Source: Eledone cirrhosa (lineage: Eukaryota). Taken from it: DNA of 64,000 nucleotides. The notes beneath the pieces are model-generated. The model was not told the DNA's origin, ran no database searches, and worked only from the letters and a program-made list of their open reading frames with translations. The stretch is from positions 41,602,001-41,666,000 of the forward strand of contig OZ024743.1 in assembly GCA_964016885.1 (NCBI GenBank), given 5' to 3'. Positions 1,921 to 64,000 of this stretch are shown here, one piece after another. Positions within the stretch are counted from its first letter, which is position 1. The number at the start of each line of letters is the position of its first letter. The position numbers and the translations under genes are program-made.

Positions 1921-3303
1921 GAATGAATACTGGACCAGAAACACATATAGTAATCTATTCGATATTACTATGGGCTCAAGCGATTCTGCCCAAATTACTG
2001 ATCTTGTGGGCCTCTTTCTTCTTATTAACATAAATGCTTCCTTTCCCCACCTTAACGGTGGTTTATATCGTGACGACTGTCTTCTTCTTTCCAATAACCT
2101 TAGCCTCTCAGAGATAGAAAAAAATAAAAAGCTAATTAGAACTTTCCTTAAAGACTATTATAGTCTAGATATTACATAAGAAAACACAAGTAAAGTAGTT
2201 AATTTCCTAGATATAACATTAGACTTATCTACGGGTATCTACCAACCTTACCATAAACCCAACCAAAATTTACACTACATACACTCACAATCTAATCACC
2301 CTAAATCTATCCTTAAAAACCTTGCATATAATATATCACTTAGAATTTCTAACCTTTCGTCTAACCAAGATGTATTGATAAAAATGCGACCTTTTATAAC
2401 GAAGCTCTAGCTAGAAGTGGCCACAAAAATAGATTAGTATATTAACCTTCTACCAATAACACTACAAACATACAACCTAATATTACCAACAAACACCAAA
2501 TGAAACATACACACCTAAATGCCACTCACACTATACCCCAAAACACCAACATAAAACCAAATTTCTCTAACTCTTCTAATATACAGTATAGTAACTCTCA
2601 AAAAACTACTCATCCTACAACTCTAATAAATGTTAATAATAAAACTCCTAATAAACAAGCTAAAACACCTAAATCAATAAATCTAACTAAAAATGTGTGT
2701 GGTGAGGTCATTAACAATAATTCTCTTAATAAACATCAGGATGCATCCTATAAAAACAATAAACAACATCGAAACCGTAATAGACGAGTTACTTGGTATA
2801 ATGCTCCATTTAATTTACAAATTAAGGATAATATACCTAAAAAATTCTTTAATATCCTAGAGAAAAACTTCCCGCCACACCACAAATACCATCAAATCTT
2901 AAATAGATCAACGGTTAAATTCTCCTACTCAACAACCAAAAACATAAAATAAAATATAAGTGCCTATAATGCATATAAATGTAAAAAAACCATCAGTATA
3001 CTACCAGTACATCAAACTAACCATAATATCTCCTCAGATACAGGATTCACGAAAAGTTGTAACTGTAGAAACAACGCAAACTGTCCATTAAAAGGAAATT
3101 GCCTTGTTAATAACATAGTATATAAATGTAAAGTTAACACTAAGGACTCAATTTATTCATATATAGGAGCTACTTCTAACAAATTTAAGGTAAGATTTAA
3201 TACCCACAAACATAGTTTTAAAAATGCCGCACTAGCTAATACAACATCTCTAGCTGAAATAATTAATAGTTATAGAAAGAGGAATATAGATTATGAAATT
3301 AAT
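1921..3303 (+). pseudogene. PLE RT and GIY-YIG fragment with stops and frameshifts
   Basis: FDITMGSSDSAQITDLVG, GGLYRDDCL, VNFLDITLDL, WYNAPFN, CNCRNNANCPLKGNC, IVYKC...YIGAT. Confidence 0.9.
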
Positions 3304-3808
3304 TTATATTCTTTTCATAGATGTATTTTTTTCACTAACATTCTTATCGTAAAACTTTAGTCACCTTAGATATTTGTATTGGCATTACTATTTTATAACA
3401 GCAACTGCTTGTATACCTTTTACTGACCACCTGACCTATTTTCACCCCTAAAATAAGCTTCAATTACTACTATTTTACCATTTGGCCAATTATTAACTCT
3501 CTATTGGTTAATTCTAAACCTCTTACCAAACAGGCAGAATATATTAGATCTTTGTTGGTTTTATTCAATGAACAAATAAAATTATTTCTGAGGTCAGCAT
3601 AAGACCTATTTTTTCCCTAAAATAATCCTTCATTCACAATATTCTTTTCCATCCAAAACTGAAATCTACCTTCCTCTACCCATAATTTAAGGTTCTTCTA
3701 CTACTATATTACTATTTTGACCCTCACTATCTCTCTATTGGTCAATTCAAAACCTGTTCCCAAACAGACCTATGTTATTGAATCTTTGTTTTTTTCAATA
3801 AGCAAATA

Positions 3809-18839: not shown

Positions 18840-19314
18840 CCATCGTATTTAAAATTTCTGCTGTCATTGTTTGATATCGTTTTCGACTTCATCTGCTACA
18901 GAGTTCTTGACTATCGATTCCACCCACACTTCAAATTCTATCACCTCTTCCTCCTAGATTACCCTTTCTCCTCTCAATCTCTAAAATACTCATGTCACAT
19001 TTGTTCATTATCTTAACCTAAACTGTCTCTTAATATTTCATTCTTTTAATCCTAATCTCATGTGAGTGCGTTTGTCATTATTTACTAGTTAATCTGCACT
19101 TCACTGCTGAGCAGATATATACGATATTATGTTGCCAAAACCTGAAATAGAGATTTGGCGATGAGAGATAAAGAAAGTGAAAGACATAGAGACTGAGAGA
19201 CAGAGAAAATGAGAGAATTATTCATAATGTTAGTTAGAAACAGACTGTAGTAGAAATTTATATAGCAATTTCATAAATCAGATGTATTATATACACGATG
19301 TGATACACTGTCCC

Positions 19315-19414
19315 TCTACAAGACTAGAAAGCTAGAAATATTTCATTCGAAAGAAATCATCATGAAATCTTTGCTGATAATTTCATTCGAATGAAACAGG
19401 TCTAGTCCTGTCGA
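19315..19414. ncRNA. Palindromic double-hammerhead mini-element, copy A (decayed)
   Basis: Plus arm: ctttg CTGATAA tttc-attc-gaat GAAAC AGG-tctagt-CCT GTC gaaag; degenerate mirror on the minus strand. Confidence 0.65.
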
Positions 19415-19892
19415 AAGCATTTCTGTATTAAACATGATGTTTACACTCTAATAATGTAATGAATATCTAACTTACTCTGGTTTCCCCGATAATTACAACT
19501 CTAACATTCTTCCTTTCTCGCTAAGACTTGAGGTCGATCAGACGCACTTCATCTTTCTTACTCTCTCAAGCCTGTCCCAACGCAAACACTATGTGAACGA
19601 AGATATTTATTTCTCCGTTACAAGTCTCCTATCACCGCGGTAATCTCATTAATTCGTCGAAACTGCTGGAGGTTGAGATCCATTGAATATATTCTAATAT
19701 TTGTGACCTGTTTTATGCAATCTCTTTTCCTCCATCCTATCTTCTCTTCCTTCCTTGGCGCCAACTCACATCGAGCTTCTAATCTCTGTCATCAAAGTAA
19801 TATTTCACCTAACGCCGCTTCGACGGTATTTTGTTGTTCAGACAGCTTCCATACGCCGGGTTTTTCTATTTTCCTGAATATATATATATATA

Positions 19893-19952
19893 TGAGTTAG
19901 GATATAGCTGTCGAAATGGCCTGAGCTCAGCCGTCGGTGTCCTGATTTTTTT

Positions 19953-20020
<68 letters not shown>

Positions 20021-20079
20021 AAAAAAATCAGGACACCGACGGCTGAGCTCAGGCCATTTCGACAGCTAAATCCGAACTC

Positions 20080-20080
<1 letters not shown>
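19893..20080. repeat. Palindrome of a 5'-truncated hammerhead around a (CA)n(TA)n(TG)n centre
   Basis: Arms are near-perfect reverse complements; each reads TGAG...C GAAA TGGC-ctgagctca-GCCGTC ggt. Confidence 0.75.
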
Positions 20081-21065
<985 letters not shown>

Positions 21066-21744: not shown

Positions 21745-22075
21745 AAGTATGCATGCATGTATACGTACATACATATATGTATACAGACGTACGGTAGTAT
21801 GTATATATATATACATACATGCACACATATATATATGCACGTATCGGTTTAATTCGGGCTGTTTGTTTGTTTACAAACAAACAAAGCGAGCATTATAATA
21901 AATGTTCGGTAAACCGATACGTGCATATATATATGTGTGCATGTATATATATATATACATACTACTGTACGTCTGTATACATATATGTATGTACGTATAC
22001 ATACATACTTACATTTAAGTAAGTGCTGTACCAAGAGTGGGAAATTAAATTTCGTTTCATTCTATTCCATTTATC
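21745..22075 (-). mobile_element. Non-autonomous Helitron copy with a short inverted duplication at its left end
   Basis: Matches 17980-18190; 21755-21845 is inverted relative to 21915-22005. Confidence 0.6.
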
Positions 22076-23699: not shown

Positions 23700-24725
23700 C
23701 TATCCGTTAGGGTATAACGTGGGGCTGTAATACAGGAAAGTGTTGTGCAATTTATGTTTACAGGCCGAAATTGCCTCAGATATTTTGTTTAAGATGTGGT
23801 CTGTGGCGTAGAGTATTTCCAGGGCCTCAGCGGCGCAGAGGTCACATGGTCTTTTATTTCCGTTATACGATCTAGCCCTAGCTAGGATCTCCCAGTGTAA
23901 CTTATATTGGGTGTGGTTGTCTTTTAGACTCCAGATATAAGCTGAAAGTGACGTCATATTCCTTCTGAGAGGGTAACGAAAAGAATGGGTATGCAAGTAA
24001 AGACGCTGCTTGAAACTATTGGCGGTTAACCCTATGCAGGCCCTACGGGACGTGGGTGTTACAACCTTACATTTGTAGACAATGTTACTAGAGAGGCATT
24101 TCCCGGATAGGGGGCAATCTGCCCGATTCCTACAATTACAGTTAGTACTAACTACAGGGTTGCACGTGTTCCTACGGCTAGGTAGTTTAGCTAAATTTGA
24201 AGCTGTGATGTTATGTGCAAGGTTAGGAGTCGTAGAGTAAGAAATTTTAATAGTATTTCTATTAAAATTTTTTTACTATATTTATGTGTAGGGGGAAAAT
24301 GCTTCGTAATAAGGGAAAGAAAGATATTAGCTAGTGGTGTGGCCACCTCCATATTATATGGTGGGTTAAACCAACAAATGCGACGGGATCTATTTCTTCT
24401 AGGTCTATTTTCGTACTCAGTATATGCTACCTAATTGACAAATCCACTTTGAGCAAGGGCTTCATTGTAATAAGTGGAATGGTCGTTGAAAATACGCTCG
24501 TTGGTGGAAAGACGGGAAAGCCTCAACGAAACGTTTCTTACCAGGTTCTTGGTTATGCTGGCAGGATGGTTGTAATGCTTACTTATGTAATTAAGCGTAT
24601 CATTCGGCTTTCTATACGGGTAATACAACCCATTCAATAAATTGAGGGTAACGTCGAGGTAATTAACGACCGAGAGATTGGCCTCAACCTGTATAGAGAG
24701 GTTGAAGCCTTTAAAGAAGGCTGTG
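23700..24725 (-). pseudogene. PLE RT/GIY-YIG fragment
   Basis: VVNYLDVTLNL, YPYRKPND..YIS..NHP, WFNPPY, CNCRNRADCPLSGKC, WEILARA..Y..CDLC..E, CKHK. Confidence 0.9.
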
Positions 24726-25036
24726 AGTATTATTATGACGTATTATTCGTTTTTTCCCGTTCTTTGCCAGCGAACGTTACCACGAACCAAAGTATCGTCT
24801 TCCTGTCTTCCTCCGGTTGCAACGTTTTTTGAAATATCCAGTTCTGCGTTTACAGATTGACTTTGTTAGTTTCAGAAGATCCCGTTAAGGGTGAAAGCAG
24901 CGATTCTTTGCTTAAACTTTAATCTGTTATTTTAATAAATATTTGCTCTACGGTTCTTATATATTTGATATATATTTTCCCTATCGAGCCCTCTTTGGAT
25001 TTTAGTCTTCAATTTTATTATTATTACTATTATTAT

Positions 25037-25600: not shown

Positions 25601-25825
25601 TAAAAGAGCTATGGAAATATTTCAAAGACAATATCTAAATAAACCCTATTTCGACATCTTAAGGAAATGTATTCATCCAATGAATTGTTTTCTGTAATTT
25701 TACAATGTATGAGCTAGTCTGTATATTTATATATTTACTTCAAAGATTCTCTTTATCTTTTCTCCAGTCGTTTTAAAAATATTCTATCATTATATTACTC
25801 ATTTTACAGTAAAATGAGTAATATA

Positions 25826-26030
25826 ATTGTTTCTACTTTTGGCACCAGGCCAGCAATCACCCAGTGCATTACTGGTACTTTATTTTATAAACCCCGTAAG
25901 GATGAAACCCATTCTGAGTTCAAATCCCGCCGAGGTTAAGTTTGCCTTTCATCCTTACGAGGTCGATAAAATAAAGTACCAGTAATGCACTGGATAATTG
26001 CTGGCCTTGTGCAAACAGTAGAACCAACTA
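25826..26030. mobile_element. Two partial family A SINEs fused as a fold-back
   Basis: 25826-25907 is the reverse complement of ~25947-26030. Confidence 0.85.
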
Positions 26031-26727
26031 TATTACTCATTTTACTCTTTCTTTATATAGCATATATCAACTATACCTTTACCGGCTTAATTCATTTGAC
26101 AATGGTCACGATAGAACACAGGTTTGATGTCGTTTAGGCAATCATATCGACTTCAGAATGGATTTCTCATGAGTTTGTATGCATTTGTTTTCAAATATAC
26201 ATATATATATATATATATGCATGTATTGCTTAGAAAACGTAAGCGAAACACAAAACTAGGAAAATCCACACTCTGCGGCTATTTGCTGTGGGTCACTGAT
26301 ATTTCGACGAATTAATGACAGTACATCTGACCACTGTGCGTTAATAACTAAGAGGAACAGTTATTAAGGAAGAAAAAAAACAAAAAAAAAACAGAGATGA
26401 TAGTGGAGAGAACGACAGAAAAAGAAAAGAAATTAGATAAAACAAAACAAAACATACCAATAGAGAGGGGCAAAGTCGAGACAGATGTACATATAAGTTT
26501 CAGTAACCAATGGGTGAGAGGGAGAAATAAAAAAGGAGAACGAACGTAAGCACCGAATCCGTATTAACGGCACGAGAGAGATGTAAGTGAAAAATAACTG
26601 ATCTTAGCGATAACAGGTGCAAAGAGGGAGGCACAAAGGTAAACGGAAAAGCGAGGGGGGAGTGGTAAGGGAGTAGAGAGAGGAGGAGAAAGGAGATATA
26701 TAGTAAGAGAGAAAGAGAATGAGTGGG

Positions 26728-29514: not shown

Positions 29515-30132
29515 ACAATGAGAATAAAAGAGGAGAAACTTATTTTTAGACTGGAGAAATAACAGAAATGCTTTCAACAACGTCGACTGTGTTAAACAGC
29601 ATCAGATGGCCGGTCAGTTGCCATTGTTAAACAGAATGTCAGATTAAGGCTACCACCTAAAAACAGGTATTGTCCTTCTGAAGAACATCCACACCGTCTC
29701 TGATTACCAAATTTACTGTCAATATGTAATCGAATGAGGATTTAAGATAAAATGGTCTTGCCATAATTCCGCTATTGTAAAATCAACTGTGAAATCATAT
29801 AACCGCGAAATAAATGCTCTATGGTTAATACATTTGTTTCGCGGTTATATGATTTCACAGTCGATTTTACAATAGCGGAATTATGGCAAGACCATTTCAT
29901 CTTAAATCCTCATTCGATTACATATTGACAGTAAATTTGGTAACCAGAGACGGTGTGGATGTTCTTCAGAAGGACAATACCTGTTTTTAGGTGGTAGCCT
30001 TAATCTGACATTCTGTTTAACAATGGCAACTGACCGGCCATCTGATGCTTTTTAACACAGTTGACGTTGTTGAAAGCATTTCTGTTATTTCTCCAGTCTA
30101 AAAATAAGTTTCTCCTCTTTTATTCTCATTGT
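29515..30132. repeat. Near-perfect fold-back inverted repeat, 302 bp arms and 14 nt loop
   Basis: 29515-29816 versus 29831-30132; about 6 mismatches counted by eye. Confidence 0.95.
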
Positions 30133-31547: not shown

Positions 31548-34039
31548 ACCTGAGAGGCTCGTGGGTACAGCGTCCTTAATGTTCTACTCGTTTGATGACT
31601 TAATATGTGCAAAGGAAAACATCGTGTATTTCCTGTTAGAATAAGGATTGAATGAGAAGCTCTTAATATATGTTGCCTTTTTTATATTTCGAGGTCTGCT
31701 GCTTATTACATTTTTTACAAATATGAAATTTTTGAATAATCATCTCCAGGATTTCATATACCTGCCGATGCGTGGGTTTTTCTTTTTCAGTTCATGTCCC
31801 TGTAACTCGAGAGTTGTGTATGGTAATGTTATTTCCTTGCAAGCTGTTGTTTGATAATATTACATCGATTCCAGTACTTGATTGGAATTTTATTTCATTG
31901 AACCAACATTGATAAAAGGCACTATTGCATCGGGAAAATTTGAATTCGGAACATAAAACACCGTACGTAAATATTGTTAAAGAACTACTTCACTACATAA
32001 CCAGTCTGACATTTATAGAAATATCAGCTACATCTCAGTCATGTCCCACTTGTCTTAAACAAGGGAAGGGCAGTCGAGTAACGTAATTCTATATATATTA
32101 CTTATTATGAATGTATTTGATCGAAAAGCTGTTAGATCACAAATGCTTAGGTGATAAAGTATAACCATAATCCATCTATAAACCCATTGACTTCCGATTC
32201 CTGGCTTTGCATTTATATCTGGCGGAATGTCACCTTCACCACGCTTTATAAAAAGCCGGCACTTTTAAATCTGGAGAGCTCATCTCTTTTCCAGGTCTGA
32301 ACACAATCACTATTTTCTAGAAATGGAAAGTGCGAGAGATTGATAGAGAGGTAGTGTGAAAGAGATATTGAGGAAGAATCGATTCCAGTTCACGATTGAT
32401 ACTTATTTTATCGCCACCTCATGGAAATTTTCTTTCCAAACATCTTTGAGATATTTTAACACGAAAACAATAAAAACCGTATTGTTTAATGTTATTTAAT
32501 ATTATTTTATATGGAAAAGTGTCTATTAAATCTAGAAATGGATACTGATTAAGTTTTTAATTTTCCTTCCTGTTCGATTGCGTAAAATGCTCACTCCAAC
32601 GTCACATTTCACATAACTAAACGCATTAAGAATCCTGCCAACTAATCTCTATTGATCTGCTATAAATACACATTGTAAATGCTCCTCTATTAACAATAAC
32701 TATGGCTTTATTTTCCTCATTGGAAAACGTTTTGAATTCTTAATAAAAAGGGAATGAAAAAAATAACCAAAAAGAAATACAAAACAAAAGCCAAATAACT
32801 CAACAGAAATACACAAAAAGCATTAGCTAATTCACATTTGTTCGTAAAGAAATAAATAGAGTTATAATAAATGCAGTATAAAAGACAGAAAATAACTAAA
32901 TGTGTAGCTGCATTTCTACCGATAGTAAACATATAAGATTAAGACTGCACTAAGCAAGGAAATAAAATAATCCTGTAATAACGTTTCACAAACGAAAGCA
33001 TTCTTGTCATGTTACATGTAAAAAAAGCGTCTCGTGAGAGTCAACAAAGCGTCCATTTTTCTCTTAAATACATCAATAAATACATATATGTGATTTCAGT
33101 TGAGGTGATCTTGCAAAATTTATTACAAAAAACTCTATTGTATGTGGAACACGATTTTATACATCAGGCCTGCTTTATGTGAAAATTGACTCTTTGCATG
33201 ATAAAAACAAACAACCATATAAATAAAAGTAAAATAATGTAAATACATTTACAGAATTTTAGCAGTAGCATCTCCTCCCGGTTTGGGGATAATCGTTTCA
33301 AGTTTAGCTTTCGAACCATTAACATAAATTGAAAAATCTTTTATAAAGTCAATATTTGTTACTACAACATGAGAGATGCGAGAAGTGTGCGATGATGGGA
33401 CCAGAGAATAAGCGTAGATGGGGAAAATAAACGTAAATATTGTTCAGTATATTATTCGCTGTTATGAAGTAAAATTGTTGCAAGAATTGCAATTGCCTCT
33501 CGGTGTCGATAAAATGACATATACTGACGTCAGCATGGTATTTTGCCCTTTTTCTTTCTTCTCCTCTTCCCTCCTTTCTCTGCTTCTTTCTTTCTTTCTT
33601 GCTTTCTTTCTTTCTTTCTTTCCTTTTTACACTTTCACTCTCTTTATATCTCAGTCTGTTCCCCTCCCCTGTCGCCATCTCTTATTCACTGTTAAATGAC
33701 ATAAAATGGTCAATATGTGTTTGGTTATCACAACAATTGTTGGAAAATGTCACATGATCTCCTGAAAATCTGAAATGTTGTGCATACTCACGTAAAGCTT
33801 TTTTCAATTCTCATATACAAGAAAAGCATGAAGGTCACAACGTGTAGTGGTACTGTCTTCGAGAATTCAACCTCGTATCTACTCTCTACCGAGCTGATTG
33901 TAACATCAAACGTAGCTTATATAAATACATTACTGGCTTTAACTACAGTTTTGTTCATATGGTCATGTCACATGAGGATGAGTGGAACGATAGCAATCAC
34001 GTAACCACCATAAATCATATAGTACATACTGTATATTAT

Positions 34040-34435
34040 ATTGGCAGTATCGGTAGAGGGTCGGACGCCATGCTTTGACGCATAGAGTTACGGCCCTTGC
34101 TATTCTGAGTTCAAATCTCGCCGAGGTTAACTTTGCCTTTCATCCTTACGGGGTCGATAAAATAAAGTACCAGTAATGCACTGGTGAATTGCTGGCCTTG
34201 TGCCAAAAGTAGAAACAATTATATATTTATAACATACTCATTATGATATATAATTGTTTCTAAGTCTGGCACAAGGCCAGCAATTCACTAGTGCATTACT
34301 GGTACTTTATTTTATCGACCCGGTAAGGATGAAAGACAAAGTTAACTTCGACGGGATTTGAACTCAGAATGGCAAGCACCATAACTCTATGCGTCAAAGC
34401 ATGTCGTCAAACTCTCTACCGATACTGCCAATCCA
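34040..34435. mobile_element. Tail-to-tail inverted pair of family A SINEs
   Basis: 34040-34222 (+) and 34250-34435 (-), about 30 bp apart. Confidence 0.9.
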
Positions 34436-36144
34436 TATGATATATTATATATAATACATAGTTTATACAATGTATATAATGTTACTTCTTATCGGAGATA
34501 ATTCCACCACTTTGAAATATTGTTAAGACGCCATTGGCTGGATTTGAACTTAGACAATACTGTGAATAGACCAAATATGTTACGTTAGTTAATGCGACGC
34601 TATTTAGAGTGTGAACATATTCACAACGAGTCCCTTTATTCATCCATCAGTGGCTGTCTTTTGACAGCACACATTACATGAACCATTTAACATTACATCA
34701 AATATAATAATTCTTTGAGCATTGAACTCCTCATCAAAGTGACTAATTACTTGTTATCAAAGATTTCAATCTGATAATAGAAATAACACGACTATCTTGT
34801 AAATTAGTACAATATGATACAGTCTACAATAAAAGAGCTGAATTGAAGAAATACCGATCAGCAAGTAACTGGAACTTACTGCGTTTTTAATCATTTGAAC
34901 TTAGTCACGTGTGATTGAAGGGGCATGGTCCTGTTTTTGATATTTTCCACGCGATCATGTGTTCGGTTACTGGAGCGAACGGTACATTTTGTTCTTGTAC
35001 AAGACGCTTTATTTAACGCTGCTTTCACGAGAGAACTAAGCCCCCTTATCATTACAGCATTCACAAAATATTCTATTACATGCATCCAAGTAGAAGGCCG
35101 GATGCATGTTCATAGTTGTGAGATGTAACTTCCATTGTTTTCCTGGATAACATTCTAGCCATTACCATAATATTGTTAAATCATAATTCTTTTATCTCGG
35201 ACGATAGTATACAACACATTTTACACGTTTAAAAAAGTATAGTGTTATTTGAATATGATTCATGTGATATATCTCCTCTGCTAAAAACGACACTATATAG
35301 CATTTAATCAGGCGCTCCTGTATATTAGTCACTCTGTCACGGGTCAGACCTGACAACGACATTTCAGAATATAATCAAGTGCAAGTCATCTTAGTAAAAT
35401 TATTTTGAAATAGAATCATATTGACAAATAGCTTCTCAGCATAAATTAGTATATGAAAACTGTATGGAAACCCATTGAAGGTGTAGTCTCAGTTGTTGGG
35501 CATTAAACTCAGAAACTAATTCGGTTTAAATCCAGCATCTTGTATGGAAGTCATTTTACTGGAGTCTACTCATGTCCATCATTCGAGTCAGTTCTCGACT
35601 CACGGCCGTCCTCTAAAATCGTTTATAGGCACACACCTACCTCTGCTAACTAAGCAATTACTTATTATTAATAGCAGTAGCGTTTTCCTACACTGGTGCA
35701 AATTAAATGACATTGTAATGAGAAGGTTTGAATCAATCGATTATATACACCCAAGTACTTGACACGGACATTTTCCATCAGTCCTGGAAACAAAATTCTA
35801 TTTAGATGGGATTTGAACTCGGAATATAAGCGGCCGTAAATACACACCTAAGCTATACGTGTAATGATTCAACAAGAATGGCAATGCACTACTCTCAGTA
35901 CAACATGTAATATTATGTAGATAAATCATTCATGAGATACGACTGTTAACATTTGAGTAGCAGGAGCCGTGTACGATTCTAATTTCCAAGATGAAGTTGT
36001 TTTATGTTGGATAAAAGTATATTTTCTGTTAATTGTACTATTATAGGAGCACAAAGTTTTTGATTTCGCAGAGTAGTAAGAGTTTTACATCAACAACCTA
36101 CTCTCTGATTTATGTTTTATTTGAGGTGATATTTCTCCTTCCAG

Positions 36145-39963: not shown

Positions 39964-40657
<694 letters not shown>

Positions 40658-40659
40658 AA

Positions 40660-42664
40660 TACCAGTGGGATTATCATTACGGCCGATAAAACATCCAACG
40701 TGTACACCCTAGATGTAAACACCTATAATAACCTCATCCGTACTGAACTACACAAGAAGTACAAAAAAAACAAGTAAATCTACTCTTGTACATATTAACA
40801 ATGAGGCACACAAAATATTTAAGAACCTGGGTATAGATGACAGGACAGAACCAATAACCCCAGCGACCCCATCCTTTAATTTAAAGGACCACAAAGTCAA
40901 TTTCTATGCAAACCCCCAGATTAGACTAATATGCCCATCGAAATCGGATATAGATAGAGTAAGTAAATATATATTAGAAAGAGTAATCCCCCAGTTAAAA
41001 CGGATAACTGGCATAAAACTCTGGGCAAATACTGAGGAGGCGGTATGTTGGTTTAATAATATCAAGGATAGGGATGAATCAAAATTTATCCAATTTGACA
41101 TAAACGACTACTATTCCTCCATATCACCCGATACCCTACATAAGACCCTACTGTTTGCCGGAGAGAATTCTGACCTAACCGACGCGGAAATAGGCATCAT
41201 CCTTGAGGCCAGAAAGACCATAATTAAGTTCGATGATAGCTACTGGGTGCGCAAAGATAGACCATCTTCCTTTGATATCACGATGGGCTCAAACGGTTCT
41301 GCCGAAGTTACAGACGTAGTGGGCATCTTCATCGCTGAAGCACTAGAGAAAAAATTCCGCAATCTACAAGGGGGTATCTACCGCGACGATGCGCTCCTTT
41401 TAGCTAAACACCTAAACAACCAGAAAATAGAAAGATTACGTAAGCAAGTTAGCGAATTTTTAAACAGTCTAGGTTTTAGCATTACTTTTGAGTACAACCT
41501 GACTGAAAGAAATTTCTTGGATGTAACATTTAATCTAGAGACGGGGGAAATCCGCCCATTCCATAAATCTAATGAAAATATTATGTATGTTAACCATAAA
41601 TCTAATCATCCACCCTCGGTTATACGGTCTATCCCTCGGGCCATCTCCCTTAGAATATCACGCCTGTCATCTACCCCCAGGTCTTTAGTGAGCACGCTTA
41701 CTACTATAACAACGCACTTAAGGCGGCTGGGTACCAAGACAAAATAGAGTATATAGATCCAGCACACTAATATAGAAATAAGGGCTCACAACGCACTAGC
41801 ATAAATAATAATATAGGTACGATACACAACATACACTTTCCGCATAGGCATAGTCGAAATAGAAGTACACAACCCAACCAAGCTAGAAAGCGGTATCGTA
41901 ACTACCTTTGGTACAACCCAATATACAATGCCTCAACATCTAAAATTTCCTCACTTTTCTTCAATTTAATCAAAACACATTTTCCTCCTACACATCGATA
42001 CGCTAAGATACTAAATCTAAGGTCTATTAAGCTTTCATATTCTACAGCACCCAATCTCGATCTAATTATTAAAAAACTTAACTCCAAACGATTAGTCAGC
42101 ACATCCACACGAAGCACCCCAAACTACATTAACACTTCCTCAAACTCTCAACCACTGAATGTAAACCCTCCTGCAGCAGACACACATATAAACCTAAGGC
42201 AATCTGTACAAGATAATAATACTACAGGAGCTGATAAGTGCAACTGCAACCTACCTGATCGTTGCCCTCTGAATAACAAATGCATGGAATCTAATATGGT
42301 GTATCAATGCACCGTTGAATCGGATAACCGAAGATGGCACTATATCGCCTCTACCACTTTTAAATCTCGTTGGTACCAACACCGTAGTTCGATGAAGAAC
42401 ATTAAATACCGTTCCGTAACTACCTTAGCCAATACAATTTGGCAGTTGCGCCAAAGTAACCTGCAATACACTTTGAAATGGACAAAACTCTCTAGTGCTT
42501 CCGCATATCGTGCAGGCCAGCCTTACTGCCGATTATGCAATATGGAGCTATTTTACATACTAAAATCCAATTATACTCTTCTCAACAACAGAACGGAAAG
42601 GACTCTATATTGCAATCACAGACTCAAGGCTACGTTCTCGAAATACAAACCTGGCTTGATTTGA
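40660..42664 (+). pseudogene. PLE RT-GIY-YIG polyprotein, frameshifted
   Basis: [85 protein letters not shown]. Confidence 0.92.
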
Positions 42665-44279: not shown

Positions 44280-45670
44280 ATAAATAATCGAAAGTGTTCC
44301 TTAGATTGCTCGGAAAGAGTTGTTGGGGTTAAATCCACGTCAAGGTTGATTGTTCGCAAACATAGCTTGTTTTGATTTTGTAGCAGGTCAAGCGAGGAAA
44401 CTCTGGCCGGTGTTAGGGCAGTCTTTCCCGGAAAAATGTGTTTATCCGCTACGAGATTACAACCTTACCATTGTTGATACGCATGTAATCAACGCTTATT
44501 TTGAAAGTTATCTTTTGCCGCATCTGTTTGTGTGAGTCGTTTAAGGCTGGGTCAGATATGCAAGGCGTGTTTCCTGGGTGTTATTTTGCAGCGCCTGCCC
44601 GCCGGGGTGTTAAGCTTGTTGCAGGGAGATCCGGTGCACGGTTTCACTCCTCATCCTTAACCCATCTGAAGAAGGATTTTTTAAGCGATGTGTAAAAATT
44701 ATCGCTGTTTCAGCTCTGCTATTGATGAGCTCGTGGGGTGCAGTTATGATGTGGAAGAGCTCCATTGGGAAAAGATCGCATTTCCTCTTGAAGTTGTACG
44801 GTGCAGCCCTGCCGACAATATCCCAGTGCATGGAGAAGCTGATGTTTAAGTCCTTTAGTGATGTGATGTAATCCGCGAGCGAAGTGGAGTGTCTTAGTTT
44901 TTTTTTATTTGTGAAAGAGTGGAGATGTGTTCGAAACCTAATTTTGAACGGGACGGAGGTAGTCCCTATATAATGTTTAACGCTATTGTGGCTAGTTATA
45001 GTGCATCTATATATAACCCTATCAGTCAAGCAGTATCCTCTAAGGGGGCAGCGTCCTCTGTCGCGGCAGTTGCAATTTCTGTCGCGGTTCCGTCTATTTC
45101 CCACGGTAAGGCTATCATTGTTGCTGCCTACGTTGTTACCCACGCTACCGCAGCTCTCGTTAACACCATTACAACCCACAGCACGCGGGGTGGTGCGATT
45201 GTTATTCTGAACGTCATGTCCTGCATATTCCCCAGTCATTTCGTGGTTATGCTGGTTGCGTCTGAGGATGCCGTTGCCAACACTATTGGATGCTGCCAGG
45301 GAGTTGTTAAGGCCGATATAGTTATTGTCAGGTGTAGGTGCGTCTGAGTGGAGGTGCTGTGTCTTGGTGATCTTACTGTGGTTCGTTGTTCCTATGATGT
45401 CTGCTAGGTTAGGAATAGTAGAGAAGGATATTTTTATATTGTTCCTATTAAGAATGTTTCTATACCTATGGTTGGGCGGGAAGTTCTTTTCTAAGGCTTC
45501 GAAGAACATCCGGGGCATGTTGGAGGCTACACTCCGAGAGTACGGGGGCTGGAACCATAGGATGTTACGGTGGCGATTACGTGTCCTTGTACATTTGCTA
45601 CGGGTGGTTTCATCTAGGTGACCGCTCTTATGTGTGTTAGTTCGCAGTCGCTTGTTCGGAACCCAAAGAG

Positions 45671-47934
45671 ATGTATGGCTTCAAAACATACCGAAACCCA
45701 ACGCGCAAAACCTTTCTGGACTCCTTTGAAGAGGACCTGCTGAAAATGATCAAAAACGTTAAGTTCAGAAAGAAACACCAATGCAGCAATCAATTCTTAA
45801 CGTCCCTTGATACACTAATAACTAAGTTCAAGAATGACCCTCACCTGTTCGTCACCTCCGACAAAATCAAAAAGCTGTACAAGATGGACGCGAGTAAGTA
45901 TAAAAAATTATTATATAAGGAACTACACAAAGACTACAAAAAGACACCCTCTAGTACCCTAAATTACATAAATAGAGTAGGGAAGTATATAGTCACCAGC
46001 TTAGAAATAGAAAAAGTACACTAACCCATACGTCCCTCTGACGCCTAAATTCTCTCTTAAGGATCACAAATATGACTTTAATGAAAGACCCTCTATTAGA
46101 CTAATATGCGCCTCTACATCAGATATACGTAAGATTAGTAAAGTGATCCTCGACAGAGTACTACTAGAGCTTAATAGAAAGGCAAGGAACTAACCTGGTC
46201 GGGATATACCGCCTACATAAGCTTAGGGAAGAGATACCGGCCCTACAAGGAGGTATATATATGGACGACGCCCTGTTTACCGTTAGGAACCATAGCCCCC
46301 GTAGGATAGAGAATCTTAACAAACATATACACAGGTTCTTCAGGTCATACGGCCTATCCGTAACTATGGACCTCAACCACTAGGTTGTCAACTTCCTGGA
46401 CGTGACCCTGGAGTTGAGTACAGGTTTATACAAACCATACTATAAGCCTGGAGAGTGCCTCTCTTATATTAATTATGCCTCCAACCACCCTAAGCAGACT
46501 CTCAACTCCATAGTCTATAGTATCTCACATAGAATCTCGAGACTATCCGCCAATGAGGATATCTTCAACCAAGCGGCAGATTACTACAATAGGGCCTTGA
46601 TAAGCGCCGGCTTTAACCGAGGCATTTCCTACATCCCCAACGCTAGCTCTAGAACCCCCCCCCTCATAAAACGAACGTTATAGTAAGCCATACTTATAAC
46701 CGACACGCGGCGACCTCGTTGAAGTCGGATATAATAGAATAGATAACCGCACTAAAGACCACGACCCCGGCGACGGTGACCACTGTAGATTACTCGAACT
46801 ATTCCCCCATTACAAAACCAACAAAGGCGACGGTCTACTACCAACGCCTTCCAACCAACATCTTCCCTTACATAAACATGAAAGAGGTAGGAAGAGTGCA
46901 CCCGAGCATAAAGTGAAAGGCGCACCGAACGGGCGACTGCGCGCTAACACATATAAGAGCGGTCATCTAGATGGAACCACCCGTAGCAAACGTACAAGGA
47001 CACCTAATCGCCACCGTAACGTCCTATGGTTTTACCCCCCTACTCTCGGAGTGTGGCCTCCAACATACCCCGGATGTTCTTCGAAGCCTTAGAGAAGAAC
47101 TTCCCGCCCAACCATAGGTATAGAAACATTCTTAATAGGAACAATATAAAAATATCCTTCTCTACTACTCCTAACCTAGCAGACATCATAGGAACAACGA
47201 ACCACAGTAAGATCACCAAGACACAGCACCTCGACAGACGCACCTACACCTGACAATAAATATATCGGCCTTAACATCTCCCTGGCAGCATCCAATAGTG
47301 TTGGCAACGGCATCCGCAGACGCAACCAGCATAACCGCCAAAGGACTGGGGAATATGCAGGACATGACGTGCGGAATAACAATCGTACCAGCCTGCGTGC
47401 TGTGGGTTGTAATGGTGCTAACGACAGCTGCGGTAGCGTGGGTAACAACGTAGGCAGCAACAATGATAGCCTTACCGTGGGAAACAGACGGAACCTCGAC
47501 AGAAATTGCAACTGCCGCGACAGAGGACGCTGCACCCTTAGAGGATAGTGTTTGACTGATAGGGTTATATATAGATGCACTATAACTAACCACAATAGCG
47601 TTAAACATTATATAGGGTCTACCTCCGTCCCGTTCAAAATTAGGTTTCGAAAACATCTCCACTCTTTCACAAATAAAAAACTAAGACACTCCACTTCGCT
47701 CGCGGATTACATCACATCACTAAAGGACTTAAGCATCAACTTCTCCACGCACTGAGATATTGTCGGCAGGGCTGCACGTTCCAAATTCATGAGGGAATGT
47801 GATATTTGCCTCATGGAGCTCTACCACATCATAACTGCACCCCACGAGCTCATAAACAGCAGAGGTGAAACAGCGATGAGTTGTACACATCGCTTAAAAA
47901 TATCCTTCTTCAGATGGGTTAAGGATGAGGAGTG
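45671..47934 (+). pseudogene. PLE RT-GIY-YIG, with internal deletion of the RT centre and multiple stops
   Basis: YGFKTYRNP, SDK, LKDHK, RLICASTSD, then a jump to LVGIY..GGIYMDDAL. Confidence 0.85.
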
Positions 47935-48005
47935 AAACTGTGCACCGGATCTCCTTGCAACAAGTCTTAACACCCCGGCAGGAAGGTGCTGCAACGCAAC
48001 CATAG

Positions 48006-49025: not shown

Positions 49026-49104
<79 letters not shown>

Positions 49105-49173
49105 GTATGTATGTATGTATGTATATATATATATATATGTATGTATATATATATATATGTATGTATGTATGTA

Positions 49174-49207
<34 letters not shown>

Positions 49208-49247
49208 CATGTATATATATATATGTATGTATGTATATATATGTATG

Positions 49248-49296
<49 letters not shown>

Positions 49297-49299
49297 GTA

Positions 49300-49404
49300 T
49301 TATGAAAATAAACCAAAGAAGCCTTCAATACGTCAAAAGTCGAAACATTGTTGGCTAATAAAGGCTTTTGATGTATTGAAGGCTTCTTTGGTTTATTTTC
49401 ATAA
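49300..49404. repeat. Hairpin with 42 bp arms and a hammerhead 3' half in the loop
   Basis: Arms 49300-49341 and 49363-49404; loop GAAAC ATT GTT GGC T AATAAA. Confidence 0.8.
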
Positions 49405-49553
49405 TTTTTGGGCTCTGTTTAATTACATTGAACTATACCTTTACTGTCATTTCTATAATACGAAGAGGGTGTTTAACTCCAACACACTCTAGTATTTTAA
49501 TTCTTATATATATATGTATGTATGTATATATATATATATATATGTATATATTA

Positions 49554-49659
<106 letters not shown>

Positions 49660-52710: not shown

Positions 52711-53118
52711 CACAGTCACCCAAACAAGAACACACATCAAACAAAACACTATGCGCAAACGCATGCGCAGAGAAGATAAACAAAATAAACAAATAAATAA
52801 ATAAATAAACAGACTAAATAAAGATGGCCTAAACATACAATGCAACGGGAGGAAACATAATAGCAACACTGACGATGTTGCAGATGTGCAACGAAAGAAA
52901 TTTGATAGACTATATATGTGTGTTTGTGTCTATATTGTATCTGTATTTTTTACCGCTGGTCAGTCAATGGCAACATTGAGGACCGAATAAATTAAATTAA
53001 CCGATATAAAAGACACAGAGGCGAAAACCAAATAAACAGTGAGTGTGTTCTGTTATTAATTCTGGCAATATTACACAAATATGACCCTCCCCAAGTATAG
53101 CAATATATATATATAGTA

Positions 53119-53230
53119 GAAATTGTTTCTATAGGACTAGGACAGTTTCATTTGAAGGGAATCATCAGGACAACACTTTCCTGGTGATTATCTTTGAATG
53201 AAACATTTCTTGTCTTGTAAGAGCCATTTC
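53119..53230. ncRNA. Palindromic double-hammerhead mini-element, copy B (decayed)
   Basis: Minus arm gtc CTGATGA ttcc-cttc-aaat GAAAC tgtcctagtcct ATA gaaac; plus arm ttc CTGGTGA...GAAAC...GTA. Confidence 0.6.
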
Positions 53231-53308
53231 AAAATTAAATCTTGTATATATTCTTCTATGTATTTAGAAACTTACTGCGGTTGCCCATAATGGAATCCGG
53301 CACTCTCT

Positions 53309-54098: not shown

Positions 54099-54808
54099 GA
54101 ATGGTTAAAATGTACAATGTAAATACCCTTAAGTGGAGTTATTGGAGAAGATAGAGTAGAAAACGAAGAGAGAAAAGTAGGGGAGAGGGAGAGAGAGAGA
54201 AATATATGCAGGGGTTGGAGAAATAGGAGAGAGTGGTTTGTAGATATCTTAATCAAAATGTTATGGTAGGGGTTTTATTATACTGGTTACTTTTAGAGAG
54301 ATGCGTTGATAGTCAAGGTCGGAATTATTTATTGCCCCAGAGGGCAGGTTCATAGATGTGGAGAGGGAGGGAGGTAGGCCTAAGGCGAGAGAAAGAGAGG
54401 GAGTGGAATGAATGTAGAGAGAGAGAGATAGAGAAGGGACAGACGAAGTCTATGTGGTGGGTGAACTTAGGGTTCGTAGTAGTAATCTGCGAATTTCACT
54501 GAGTAACCATTTATAGTGATAAGCAGTGTATTGTCTTGTAGTATGGGGGAAGATTAGATGGTTAGCTAGAAAGCGATGTTATAGTTAGGGTTCGAATGTT
54601 AAGTTATTTTATACTGAGAGATAAACACTCCGGTATACAGAAGGATCAGGAACTAAGTTTCTTCAACAATTCTTCCATAACTCGTAGAGTAACCTCTCAC
54701 CGTACGTCAACCATTGTAGTAATTAACCATTACTACATCTAGGATAATCCTATATCTAATAATCGCCTCCTACACAGTTGGGCAACCACACCGACACACG
54801 GTATTAAT

Positions 54809-57133
54809 ATGGAAAGGTATCACATAGGTATGTCACTTAAAAACATACCTATACCTAACAAAAGGGAATATATTCTTAGTATGATTCAACGCAATAATGA
54901 CATCATTCAACGTGTACGATGGAAAGCTCTCCATTTCGATAAGGGACGCGCCAGTCACTCGTCTGAATAATATGGTTTTAAATCATTTAAAAACCCACCC
55001 ACAAACCCCCATCTCGATGCTTTCGAACAGGATTTAATGAAAACGACCATGAACATTCAGTTTAACAAACAGAAATAATGAGCTGCAGAGCAACATGAAA
55101 GCACTACTCCGCAGACTGCAAAATACCAATGGAATTGTTGTGAAAGCTGACAAGACCTCTAACGTGTATACTATGGATATCGATACGTACAATAACTTCA
55201 TACGCAACGAACTACATAAAACATATAGAAAAACAAATGAAACTACGCAGCAAATATTAACAACGAGGCATACAAAGTGGTGAAGAATCTCAAGATAGAC
55301 GATAGAACCGAGCCGATTATACCCACAACCCCCACCTTCAACCTGAAGGACCATAAGGTAAATTGTTACTCTAACCCTAAGATTAGACTTATATGCCCTT
55401 CTAAATCAGACATAGGAAAAATTAGCAAACATATACTTGACAGAGTAATAACTCAAGTGAAAAAGAAAATTGAAATTAAATTATGGGGCAACACTAGCGA
55501 TTCGCTGGTTTAATAACGTTAAGAATATGAATAAATCTAAGTTTATACAATTTGACTTAGACGAATACTACTCTTCAATCTCACCAAGCACTTTACGTAA
55601 GGCCCTATCGTTTGCTAAAGTCAATTGCGACCTAACGGAGGACGAAATTAATATTATTCTCGAGGCTAGAAAAACTATTATTAAGTTTGATAACTGCTAC
55701 TGGGAACGTAAGGACAGACCCACAAACTTCGACATTACCATGGGTTCCAACGACTCAGCGGAGGTCACGGATCTTGTGGGAATTTACATAGCCCACATAC
55801 TACATAGTAAATTTAGTAATCTACAGCGGGGGAGGGGTATATACAGAGATGACGGGCTCTTATTAGTTAATAACTTGAATAACCAAAATCTTGAAAGGCT
55901 ACGGAAAAATATTAGAAAATCTTTTAGTGAACTGGGTCTAAAAATAATATACGAATACAATCTTAAAGTAGTAAACTTTCTGGACGTAACTCTTAATTTA
56001 AATACCGGACAGATACAACCCTTCCACAAGATGAATGAGAACCTTACGTATAACAACTTTAACTCAAATCACCCACTCTCCATGATCAAATCGGTTCCCC
56101 GGAGTATTTCTCTTAGAATCTCTCGCCTATCATCTAACTCTGATATTTTTAGTGAACACGCTGAATACTATAATAATGCATTAAGCAATGCCGACCACAG
56201 GTATACAATAGAATACATTGATAGGAATCTCCATAACACACATAGCCCTACACGAAATCAAGGAATACGTAACCGGGGGACTAAAATACAAGCGCACGCA
56301 CACAGTACCACCAGACATACTAATAATAGAAAATCACCACCAAATAAATCACGTTGTAGAAAGTATATCTGGTATAATCCTATTTTTAATGCCTCGATTA
56401 GTACAAAACTATCTCTTTCATTCTTTAAGTTAATCAACAAACATTTCCCTAGTTCCCATAAAAACAGTAAAATTCTGAACTCTAAAACTATTAGACTATC
56501 ATACTCCACGGCACCAAACCTTGAAGCATACATAAAAAACTTAACTTAAAGCAATTAAACAACACTACAAAACAAAATATTTTGGTAACAGAGGGGCAGA
56601 ACGTAATATCTGCCTCCCAACCACTAAATGGGAGACGGGTATTACACAACCCACCTGTACTGCTATCACAACCTATCCATGGTATACCCGCTACCCACAA
56701 CAAAGAATGTAACTGCCATCTACCTGAAAGATGTCCATTGAACAATGAATGCCTAAAGTCCAACATTGTTTACCAATGCACGGTTGAATCGAACGACCAG
56801 AAATGGTATTATATCGGATCTACCACCACCTCGTTTAAATATCGCTGGTACCGTCATCGATTCTCAATCAAACATCCTGATCACCGTTTTGTGACCACGC
56901 TCGCCAACAAGACCTGGCAACTTCGTGAACACAACCAACAGTTCACCTTGAAATGGGTTATACTTTCCAGCGCAAGTGCATACCGGAGTGGATTGAAGTA
57001 CTGTAGGTTATGTAACCTTGAACTCTTTTACATATTAAAATCCAAAAACAAACGACTTAACGATAGAATCGAACGAGCATTATACTGCAACCACAAACTA
57101 AAAGCTAAATTCTCTCAGTGTAAAATAACTTAA
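54809..57133 (+). pseudogene. PLE RT-GIY-YIG polyprotein, full length but disrupted by a few frameshifts and stops
   Basis: MERYHIGMSLKNIPIP..RVRWKA, ADKTSN, FIQFDLDEYYSSI, FDITMGSNDSAEVTDLVG, GIYRDDGL, CNCHLPERCPLNNEC, IVYQC..YYIG, CRLC, CNH. Confidence 0.95.
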
Positions 57134-63695: not shown

Positions 63696-63805
<110 letters not shown>

Positions 63806-63831
63806 ACACATATATATATATATATATATGC

Positions 63832-63949
63832 TTTAATATAGAAAAGCTTCTACAGGACTAGAACTGTTTCATTCGTGAGAAATCATAAGGAATGATGATT
63901 TCTCACAAATAAAACAGTTCTAGACCTGGAGAAGCTTTTCTATATTAAA
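63832..63949. ncRNA. Palindromic double-hammerhead mini-element, copy C
   Basis: Minus arm ttc CTTATGA tttc-tcac-gaat GAAAC AG-ttctagtc-CT GTA gaagc; mirrored, more decayed plus arm; next to (TA)n. Confidence 0.7.
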
Positions 63950-64000
63950 ACATTTATACTCTGCTATGTATTGAATATGTTACTGTGGTTACCCCCGATG

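Follow-up and report, generated by a model that had tools for sequence, protein, structure and literature searches.

The window analysed here is a stretch of 64,000 nucleotides from the genome of Eledone cirrhosa (assembly GCA_964016885.1, contig OZ024743.1, positions 41,602,001 to 41,666,000 of the forward strand). It contains three palindromes, at 19315-19414, 53119-53230 and 63832-63949, each made of two back-to-back arms that resemble hammerhead ribozymes on opposite strands; these positions and the arm consensus set out in a preliminary description of the sequence were both borne out. When folded, the three form long hairpins (z = -15.0, -4.9 and -8.3), and in no case did any of 200 shuffles reach equal stability. 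The palindrome had been taken as the full extent of the element, but a tail of approximately 70 nt common to all three copies lies beyond it, on one arm only. Positions within arms are counted throughout from the hammerhead cleavage site after the GUA triplet. The features, in window coordinates, are as follows.

19313..19363, minus strand: copy 1, inverted arm, a decayed hammerhead with C3>A and a duplication in loop III
19364..19373, no strand: copy 1, junction of 10 nt
19374..19490, plus strand: copy 1, forward arm (G8>A; GUC triplet at 19410-19412) and tail, of an older subfamily
53115..53168, minus strand: copy 2, inverted arm with the core CUGAUGA intact, stem III broken and an AUA triplet, ending in (TA)n
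53169..53180, no strand: copy 2, junction of 12 nt
53181..53301, plus strand: copy 2, forward arm (A6>G) and tail, with (CT)n(CA)n(TA)n beyond it
63700..63830, no strand: copy 3, (TA)n microsatellite target
63832..63889, minus strand: copy 3, inverted short-end arm, a decayed hammerhead with core CUUAUGA (G5>U) and about 19 nt beyond the cleavage site, up to the (TA)n target
63853-63851, minus strand: GUA triplet of the copy 3 inverted arm
63890..63891, no strand: copy 3, junction of 2 nt between the cores, both stem I 5' strands being mostly lost
63892..63950, plus strand: copy 3, forward arm, a decayed hammerhead (C3>A, G12>A and GUA>GGA, the triplet at 63928-63930) running to about +20
63951..64000, plus strand: copy 3, tail from +21 to about +90, present on this arm only and ending about 14 nt beyond the window

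The forward arm and tail are 85% identical to the nearest fetched copy in copy 1 and 80% in copy 2. Directly after the copy 3 tail, just past the end of the window, a second unit of another subfamily follows in direct orientation (L001:1685-1835). Among the 30 best of 2,449 candidates in the genome, the full unit is about 190 bp long and reads (TA)n, inverted arm, short junction, forward arm, tail, (TA)n. The inverted arm consists of the hammerhead and about 20 nt and is joined head-to-head to a forward arm of the hammerhead and about 90 nt, at a site that is usually (TA)n.

The arms had been described as complete type I hammerheads, which is true of intact relatives and not of the copies in the window. 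The type I three-stem fold is the minimum-energy structure of the intact natural arms L071 and L347, though not of L050; in the window no arm has an intact core, and 0 of 6 pass a strict core descriptor. Among all loci examined, 145 distinct arms retain the core (CUGANGA / GAAA / NUH), and 87 of these also keep all three stems in type I order. Single intact arms (L071, L347 and L050) are no more stable than shuffles of themselves (z from +0.2 to -1.2). Stem I, first proposed as a TTC/GAA stem of 3 bp, has 6 bp, and compensatory changes are present in it, two of the six pairs having changed on both sides between subfamilies. In an alignment of 12 hand-picked, related natural arms the covariation score was reached by 0 of 500 shuffles, stems II and III are nearly invariant, and loop II is variable. 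Stem III has 4 bp and a loop of 8 nt with a palindromic centre, and its homodimer is computed at -14.8 kcal/mol against -2.4 for the monomer. The G10.1-C11.1 pair that closes stem II is absent, with U.U in its place in 85 of the 87 intact arms, and judging by this base combination the ribozyme may cleave poorly. No hammerhead appeared among the 150 listed of 269 Rfam matches in the window, the listed matches being hairpin and miRNA noise, nor at E<=10 on the intact arm L071 or on L199, which carries a deletion in stem-loop III. The competition between hairpin and ribozyme that had been foreseen is steep in the calculated energies: the double-arm hairpin comes to -68 kcal/mol in copy 3 and -92 in a young copy versus -7 for the ribozyme fold, and in a double-arm RNA the hairpin would overwhelm the ribozyme.

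Other repeats in the window have related architectures. A second abundant family, with two window copies at 19878-20095, 103 arms in the loci examined and 36 in a 980-kb sample, has a GAAAC...GUC half of stem III with a palindromic loop and no CUGANGA core. It has the same back-to-back layout with one tail, shares a tail motif, and shows a 5' cliff 29-34 nt after a TATTTA box. Its two window copies stand tail-to-tail across a microsatellite, and in both a G precedes the start base. Microsatellites in the upstream flanks of L136 and L139 contain insertions of a third repeat that resembles a hammerhead, its stem III minimal and its loop palindromic. Further palindromes with 75-96% arm identity lie at 29515-30132, 34010-34466, 25808-26046, 21747-22012 and 49054-49658; a common short repeat is involved in two of them, and the genome seems rich in fold-back insertions. 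Broken open reading frames (ORFs) of other families of Penelope-like elements (PLEs), belonging to the same protein group by tblastn, are present at 40652-42628, 54797-57103, 23754-24727, 1925-3315 and 44586-47994, the last with an inverted repeat of about 1 kb within it. None of these matches the parent of the palindromes at the DNA level.

That parent was located elsewhere in the genome, and the origin of the arms in the pLTR of a PLE, suspected in the preliminary description, is thereby established. Walking upstream from a randomly drawn copy with longer arms (L050) led through about 480 bp of non-coding sequence into a microsatellite tract, and upstream walking reached an inverted ORF at 3 of 30 loci. 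In 10-kb stretches around the ORF end, the order of the parent is pLTR, ORF, UTR, microsatellite, pLTR, where the pLTR consists of 3' UTR, TATA box, hammerhead and tail and is followed by an ORF for reverse transcriptase (RT) and GIY-YIG. The ribozyme unit stands directly before the ORF in L193 with L192, L194, L199 and L200, and the ORF end, UTR and unit follow one another in the same orientation in L191, L196, L201, L202, L208 and L210. Palindrome arms carry subfamily variants of the non-palindromic parent pLTRs. Of 88 tails, 68 run into TA repeats, 12 into CA and 8 into other sequence. In L193, L194 and L200 a stop codon spans the ribozyme cleavage site at the 5' end of the ORF, and the frame opens just after that site and stays open for about 45 codons before the first ATG. 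The microsatellite of the 3' UTR leaves a gap of 2.7-7.8 kb between the UTR's two unique parts and gathers other insertions (L191, L196, L201, L208 and L192), so the element carries its own target.

Translations of seven parent copies show an RT plus a GIY-YIG domain at the C-terminus, and as the ORF is broken in all seven, an active source was not found. Homologues are mostly about 720-750 amino acids long, many of them with PF26215 and the top match with GIY-YIG PF01541; a bivalve, a brittle star and a sea anemone are the sources of the few that are named. No match was obtained when three N-terminal/RT fragments of the ORF were scanned directly against Pfam, or one fragment against PDB, and a search of the genome for the GIY-YIG family yielded 30 loci of which none was linked to the parent family except by one weak match. 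The parent has the RWR, DKT, C-N-C-x5-C, CDLC and CMH motifs of the Hydra clade and, judged by eye, no CCHH; similar motifs are present in 99-119 of 120 homologues. By these motifs and its target, the parent would be a Hydra-like PLE.

The high copy number surmised from three copies in 64 kb was upheld by a sample of 98 arbitrary 10-kb stretches (980 kb), in which a reversed-sequence control gave 0 matches. The sample held 22 loci, which extrapolates to approximately 67,000 in the 3.0-Gb assembly (95% range 42,000-102,000). Eight of the 22 are head-to-head (about 24,000 genome-wide), and in four of these eight both arms start near -44. The other 14 are not head-to-head; solo short-end copies account for 6 of the 22, and direct doublets are rare (1 of 22; L217 and L001 are examples). 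The palindromes vary continuously in length, from about 120 bp up to kilobases, and keep the same pair of 3' ends throughout. An ordinary MITE or another DNA transposon with long inverted repeats was also considered. Such an element would also be short, AT-rich and palindromic with a TA target, but the terminal inverted repeat named beforehand as its signature is absent, since in none of 6 copies checked do the unit's two ends form an inverted repeat. Moreover, the unit serves an RT-encoding element as its pLTR, a parentage that refutes this explanation, and the majority of random copies are not palindromic.

The 3' ends of the arms are bimodal, gathering at about +15-25 and about +90, with 95 of 261 at +9 to +27 and 117 beyond +75, 43 lying between and 6 earlier. 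Of 88 head-to-head pairs, 80 carry the tail on one arm only, 5 on neither and 3 on both. Among 54 short palindromes there are 37 different spacers, mostly of 5-8 nt, and equivalent junctions recur in each subfamily. In 69 of 76 pairs the two arms are of one subfamily, against a mean of 24.5 and a maximum of 38 in shuffles, and a variant at +7 is concordant between arms in 35 of 37. A search for chimeras of two RNAs found the 7 discordant pairs to be mostly neighbouring separate insertions or near-ties. The identity of arms within a copy, at 0.941, is scarcely different from the 0.936 found between copies of a subfamily. Taken together, the variety of spacers, the concordance of arms and their identity indicate that each palindrome was formed at insertion from one source and decayed later.

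These observations bear on the suggestion that the palindromes are a minimal, non-autonomous element, almost pure ribozyme on both strands, transcribed and mobilised as a unit by a PLE in the manner of retrozymes or viroids. Its very high copy number would suit such an element, as would the recurrence of some spacers (in 7, 4 and 4 copies). In public contigs the -44 to +90 segment also has a summed depth of about 4-9e5 versus about 1-5e3 for the ORF, values that are not a copy number and come from one sample, possibly the source, whose contigs cannot show transcript starts. (Opposite-strand joints at 1585-1589 in those contigs were left out, as they lie near mismatches or indels of the reference copy.) An element multiplying as a double unit is nevertheless hard to reconcile with 37 spacers in 54 copies and equivalent junctions arising separately in each subfamily, with arms no more alike within a copy than between copies, with the continuum of arm lengths and the parental variants in the arms, or with short inserts that have no TATA box and units that have no promoter inside them. 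A hairpin that so far outweighs the ribozyme fold is a further obstacle. We regard this explanation as very improbable, and the parallel with the plus and minus hammerheads of viroid-like RNAs holds only as an analogy. The palindromes of the window are real, yet they are no separate element: they are pLTR-only insertion products of a Hydra-like PLE, and dead in the window.

The position of the 5' ends was determined on copies selected with tail-only queries from three subfamilies, to avoid selection for palindromes. Dropping the 3 query sources from 90 loci left 87 copies, of which 7 without an alignment on the ribozyme side were left out, giving 80 alignable copies. An adjacent inverted ribozyme arm was found in 45 of the 87, and both arms start at -46 to -36 in 18. 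Starts fall at -45 to -36 in 36 of the 80 copies, with the mode at -44 (11 copies); 24 lie between -35 and -1, 1 at +3, and 19 further upstream. The per-base stopping rate at -45 to -36 is about nine times that of either flank (p<1e-11); for two subfamilies, whose upstream references are sparse, the starts are blurred by 2-3 nt. Repeated truncation and inversion with breaks right at the hammerhead, the other possibility raised in the preliminary description, was the correct alternative, although the breaks do not occur where the ribozyme would cut: they occur at -44, the first base of stem I, and 0 of the 80 tail-selected copies start at +1, the cleavage site.

Of 86 parent-type arms examined, 67 could be scored, and 59 of these, from diverged subfamilies, have a [T/C]ATAAATA box whose first base lies 29-30 nt upstream of -44; a distance of about 30 nt from TATA box to start is the textbook spacing. 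At -45, 62 of 63 parent-type arms have a C, whereas 11 of 20 free junctions have a G (p=3e-5 against a background of 0.148), 3 of the 11 being explicable by a neighbouring repeat or the partner arm (L290, L354 and L236). Of 22 junctions that adjoin the partner core, 17 also have a G at -45, which by construction belongs to the partner arm as well. Full-length L1 inserts are described as bearing an extra G derived from the cap (PMC11702581), and the Penelope element of D. virilis as having a TATA-less internal promoter (PMC2377424). Given the TATA box 29-30 nt upstream and the non-genomic G, we infer that -44 likely marks the capped transcription start of the element mRNA, a prediction from genomic sequence. 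The pile-up of 5' ends at the first base of stem I, away from the cleavage site and accompanied by a TATA box and a G, is the new observation of this study.

The ribozyme fold itself, or stem I re-forming in the cDNA, might have halted synthesis at -44 in place of an RNA 5' end. That -44 is exactly where stem I begins fits this explanation, and one subfamily has a self-complementary run of four bases at that point, from which perfect centres result (7 of 54). We rejected an explanation in which the self-complementary AGCT is by itself what sets the junction, since in the AGAT subfamily the pile-up has the same position. The pile-up persists in a subfamily whose stem I is not self-complementary, and the second family, without a hammerhead core, has the same cliff after a TATA-like box, albeit with a weaker G signal (6 of 14 free junctions). 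A block caused by folding would also leave the conserved TATA box and the non-genomic G unexplained, and we consider it improbable.

The likeliest of the alternatives concerns how the two arms were joined. A cDNA primed at a single target end could, on reaching the 5' end of the mRNA, snap back with a loop of 3-5 nt and copy itself, to be captured by the other target end at the TA-like positions +15-20. Self-priming is the published reading of head-to-head junctions in PLEs (PMC3846280), the commonest spacers of 5-7 nt match a snap-back of 1-2 bp with such a loop, the sequence around the short end is TA-rich, like the target, and the concordance of arms described above fits one cDNA snapping back equally well. 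However, a snap-back primed at the tail should leave the full 5' end on the tail arm. Among 54 short palindromes, a set to which a copy 3 query contributed 30 loci, a complete stem I strand is found three times as often on the short-end arm alone (25) as on the tail arm alone (8), with 10 having it on both arms and 11 on neither. Of 45 pairs, 6 have a short-end arm that extends 5' by at least 8 nt more than its partner and 9 the reverse; in L210 the lead of the short-end arm amounts to kilobases. Four copies (L345, L348, L137 and L313) have arms that abut without overlapping, the tail arm starting within about 5 nt of the inverted arm's end, as in twin priming by L1, and solo short-end inserts exist as well. 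Later trimming at palindrome centres could mimic some of the arm asymmetries; together with the abutting arms and solo inserts, these asymmetries favour two priming events over a tail-primed snap-back, which we judge unlikely.

The reading that we prefer, with a probability of roughly 0.6, is that the palindromes are short insertions of the pLTR end of a PLE, each formed separately, that arise through twin priming close to the mRNA's 5' end. If the mRNA starts at -44, the hammerhead would occupy its front, on the first 44-50 nt or so, and both RT start sites would lie near the cap, only about 60 and 135 nt from it. The PLE protein would nick both strands of a (TA)n target; one target end would then prime at about +20 and the other at about +90, on the same uncleaved RNA. 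Should the cDNA begun at +90 halt on meeting the first primer, the product would be an inversion of the L1 kind that contains a single ribozyme. Should it instead displace the first cDNA and likewise run towards the cap, two cDNA 3' ends would be left to join through 1-4 nt of microhomology, often a C copied from the cap, and the outcome would be two back-to-back ribozymes with a tail on one side. In published in vitro work on an anole PLE, both target strands were extended from two internal start sites, which delimit the tail, on RNA that had not been processed (PMC11167929). Since palindromic products have no promoter and would fold into hairpins, they are likely dead-end by-products that record how the PLE inserts.

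A broader version of twin priming is more tentative, and we would put it a little short of even odds: the commonest product of the parent PLE may be a pair of cDNAs akin to strong-stop DNA, with a dimeric RT-endonuclease priming both strands near the cap and the two fusing head-to-head. If so, the head-to-head palindromes of PLEs would be explained without an antisense template, and hammerhead cleavage at the front of the mRNA would act as a self-decapping switch and not as a processor of unit-length RNA. The function of PLE hammerheads is termed unclear in a study of the group (PMC8557442). Opposite-strand PLE hammerheads and head-to-head junctions are already in print. Within the literature covered, which included few subscription papers, none was found that ties the palindromic junctions of PLEs to a transcription start, a cap or twin priming. 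What deserves attention is the proposed geometry, a ribozyme at the cap with two priming sites just downstream, which makes testable predictions. The tens of thousands of natural insertions form a base-level record suggesting that the template is sense, capped and uncleaved. In genomes such as this one, screens for ribozymes or viroid-like sequences would meet about 24,000 pairs of plus and minus hammerheads that are insertion debris.

Among known systems, the parent most resembles the C-terminal EN+ PLEs of the Hydra clade as portrayed by Craig et al. (2021, PMC8557442). Like them it has an RT followed by a C-terminal GIY-YIG, the RW(R/K) and DKT motifs, a CxCx5C linker, and CxxC and CxH around the E and N of the EN domain. 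It also shares their canonical pLTR hammerhead, (TA)n target, tail at one end and adjacent inverted 5'-truncated copy; such inverted copies and one-sided tails are reported there as standard PLE features. It differs in its 3' UTR microsatellite of kilobases, which takes the unit beyond the described '<3 kb', in a tail of about 70 nt as opposed to 30-40, and in the number of loci, most of which are pLTR-only inserts of 60-200 bp.

Close opposite-strand pairs were reported for the dual minimal hammerheads of Cervera and De la Pena (2014, PMC4209133), where they are ascribed to truncated PLEs, and a palindromic loop III that permits dimers is described there for metazoan PLEs. Their pairs stand about 100-700 bp apart, in contrast to the 5-8 nt between most cores here, and the 4-bp stem III, 8-nt loop and U.U in place of G10.1-C11.1 are also distinct. 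In PMC3846280, head-to-head junction palindromes are ascribed to self-priming on an antisense template, and TATA/Inr elements are noted in one pLTR; the TATA box of the present parent likewise sets it apart from the TATA-less Penelope of D. virilis (PMC2377424). Non-LTR retrozymes (bioRxiv 10.64898/2026.07.22.740005) are, like the inserts studied here, non-coding derivatives of PLE pLTRs with a type I hammerhead, but they are described as head-to-tail tandem arrays, unlike these dispersed single or head-to-head inserts.

With regard to mechanism, the Poseidon element PAc of Anolis (Frangieh et al. 2024, PMC11167929) is similar in its two internal RT start sites bracketing the tail, extension of both strands, AT-rich target, uncleaved RNA template and hammerhead at the border of pLTR and ORF. 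It belongs to a different clade, and the likely start codon here lies about 135 nt past the cleavage site and not inside the ribozyme. The 5' inversions produced by twin priming in L1, as presented in PMC11702581, share two primed target ends, abutting arms in some copies and the extra G. Unlike in L1, both primings here would take place inside the mRNA, at set positions close to its 5' end, and the two arms frequently overlap in full as far as the 5' end, with a palindrome as the outcome.
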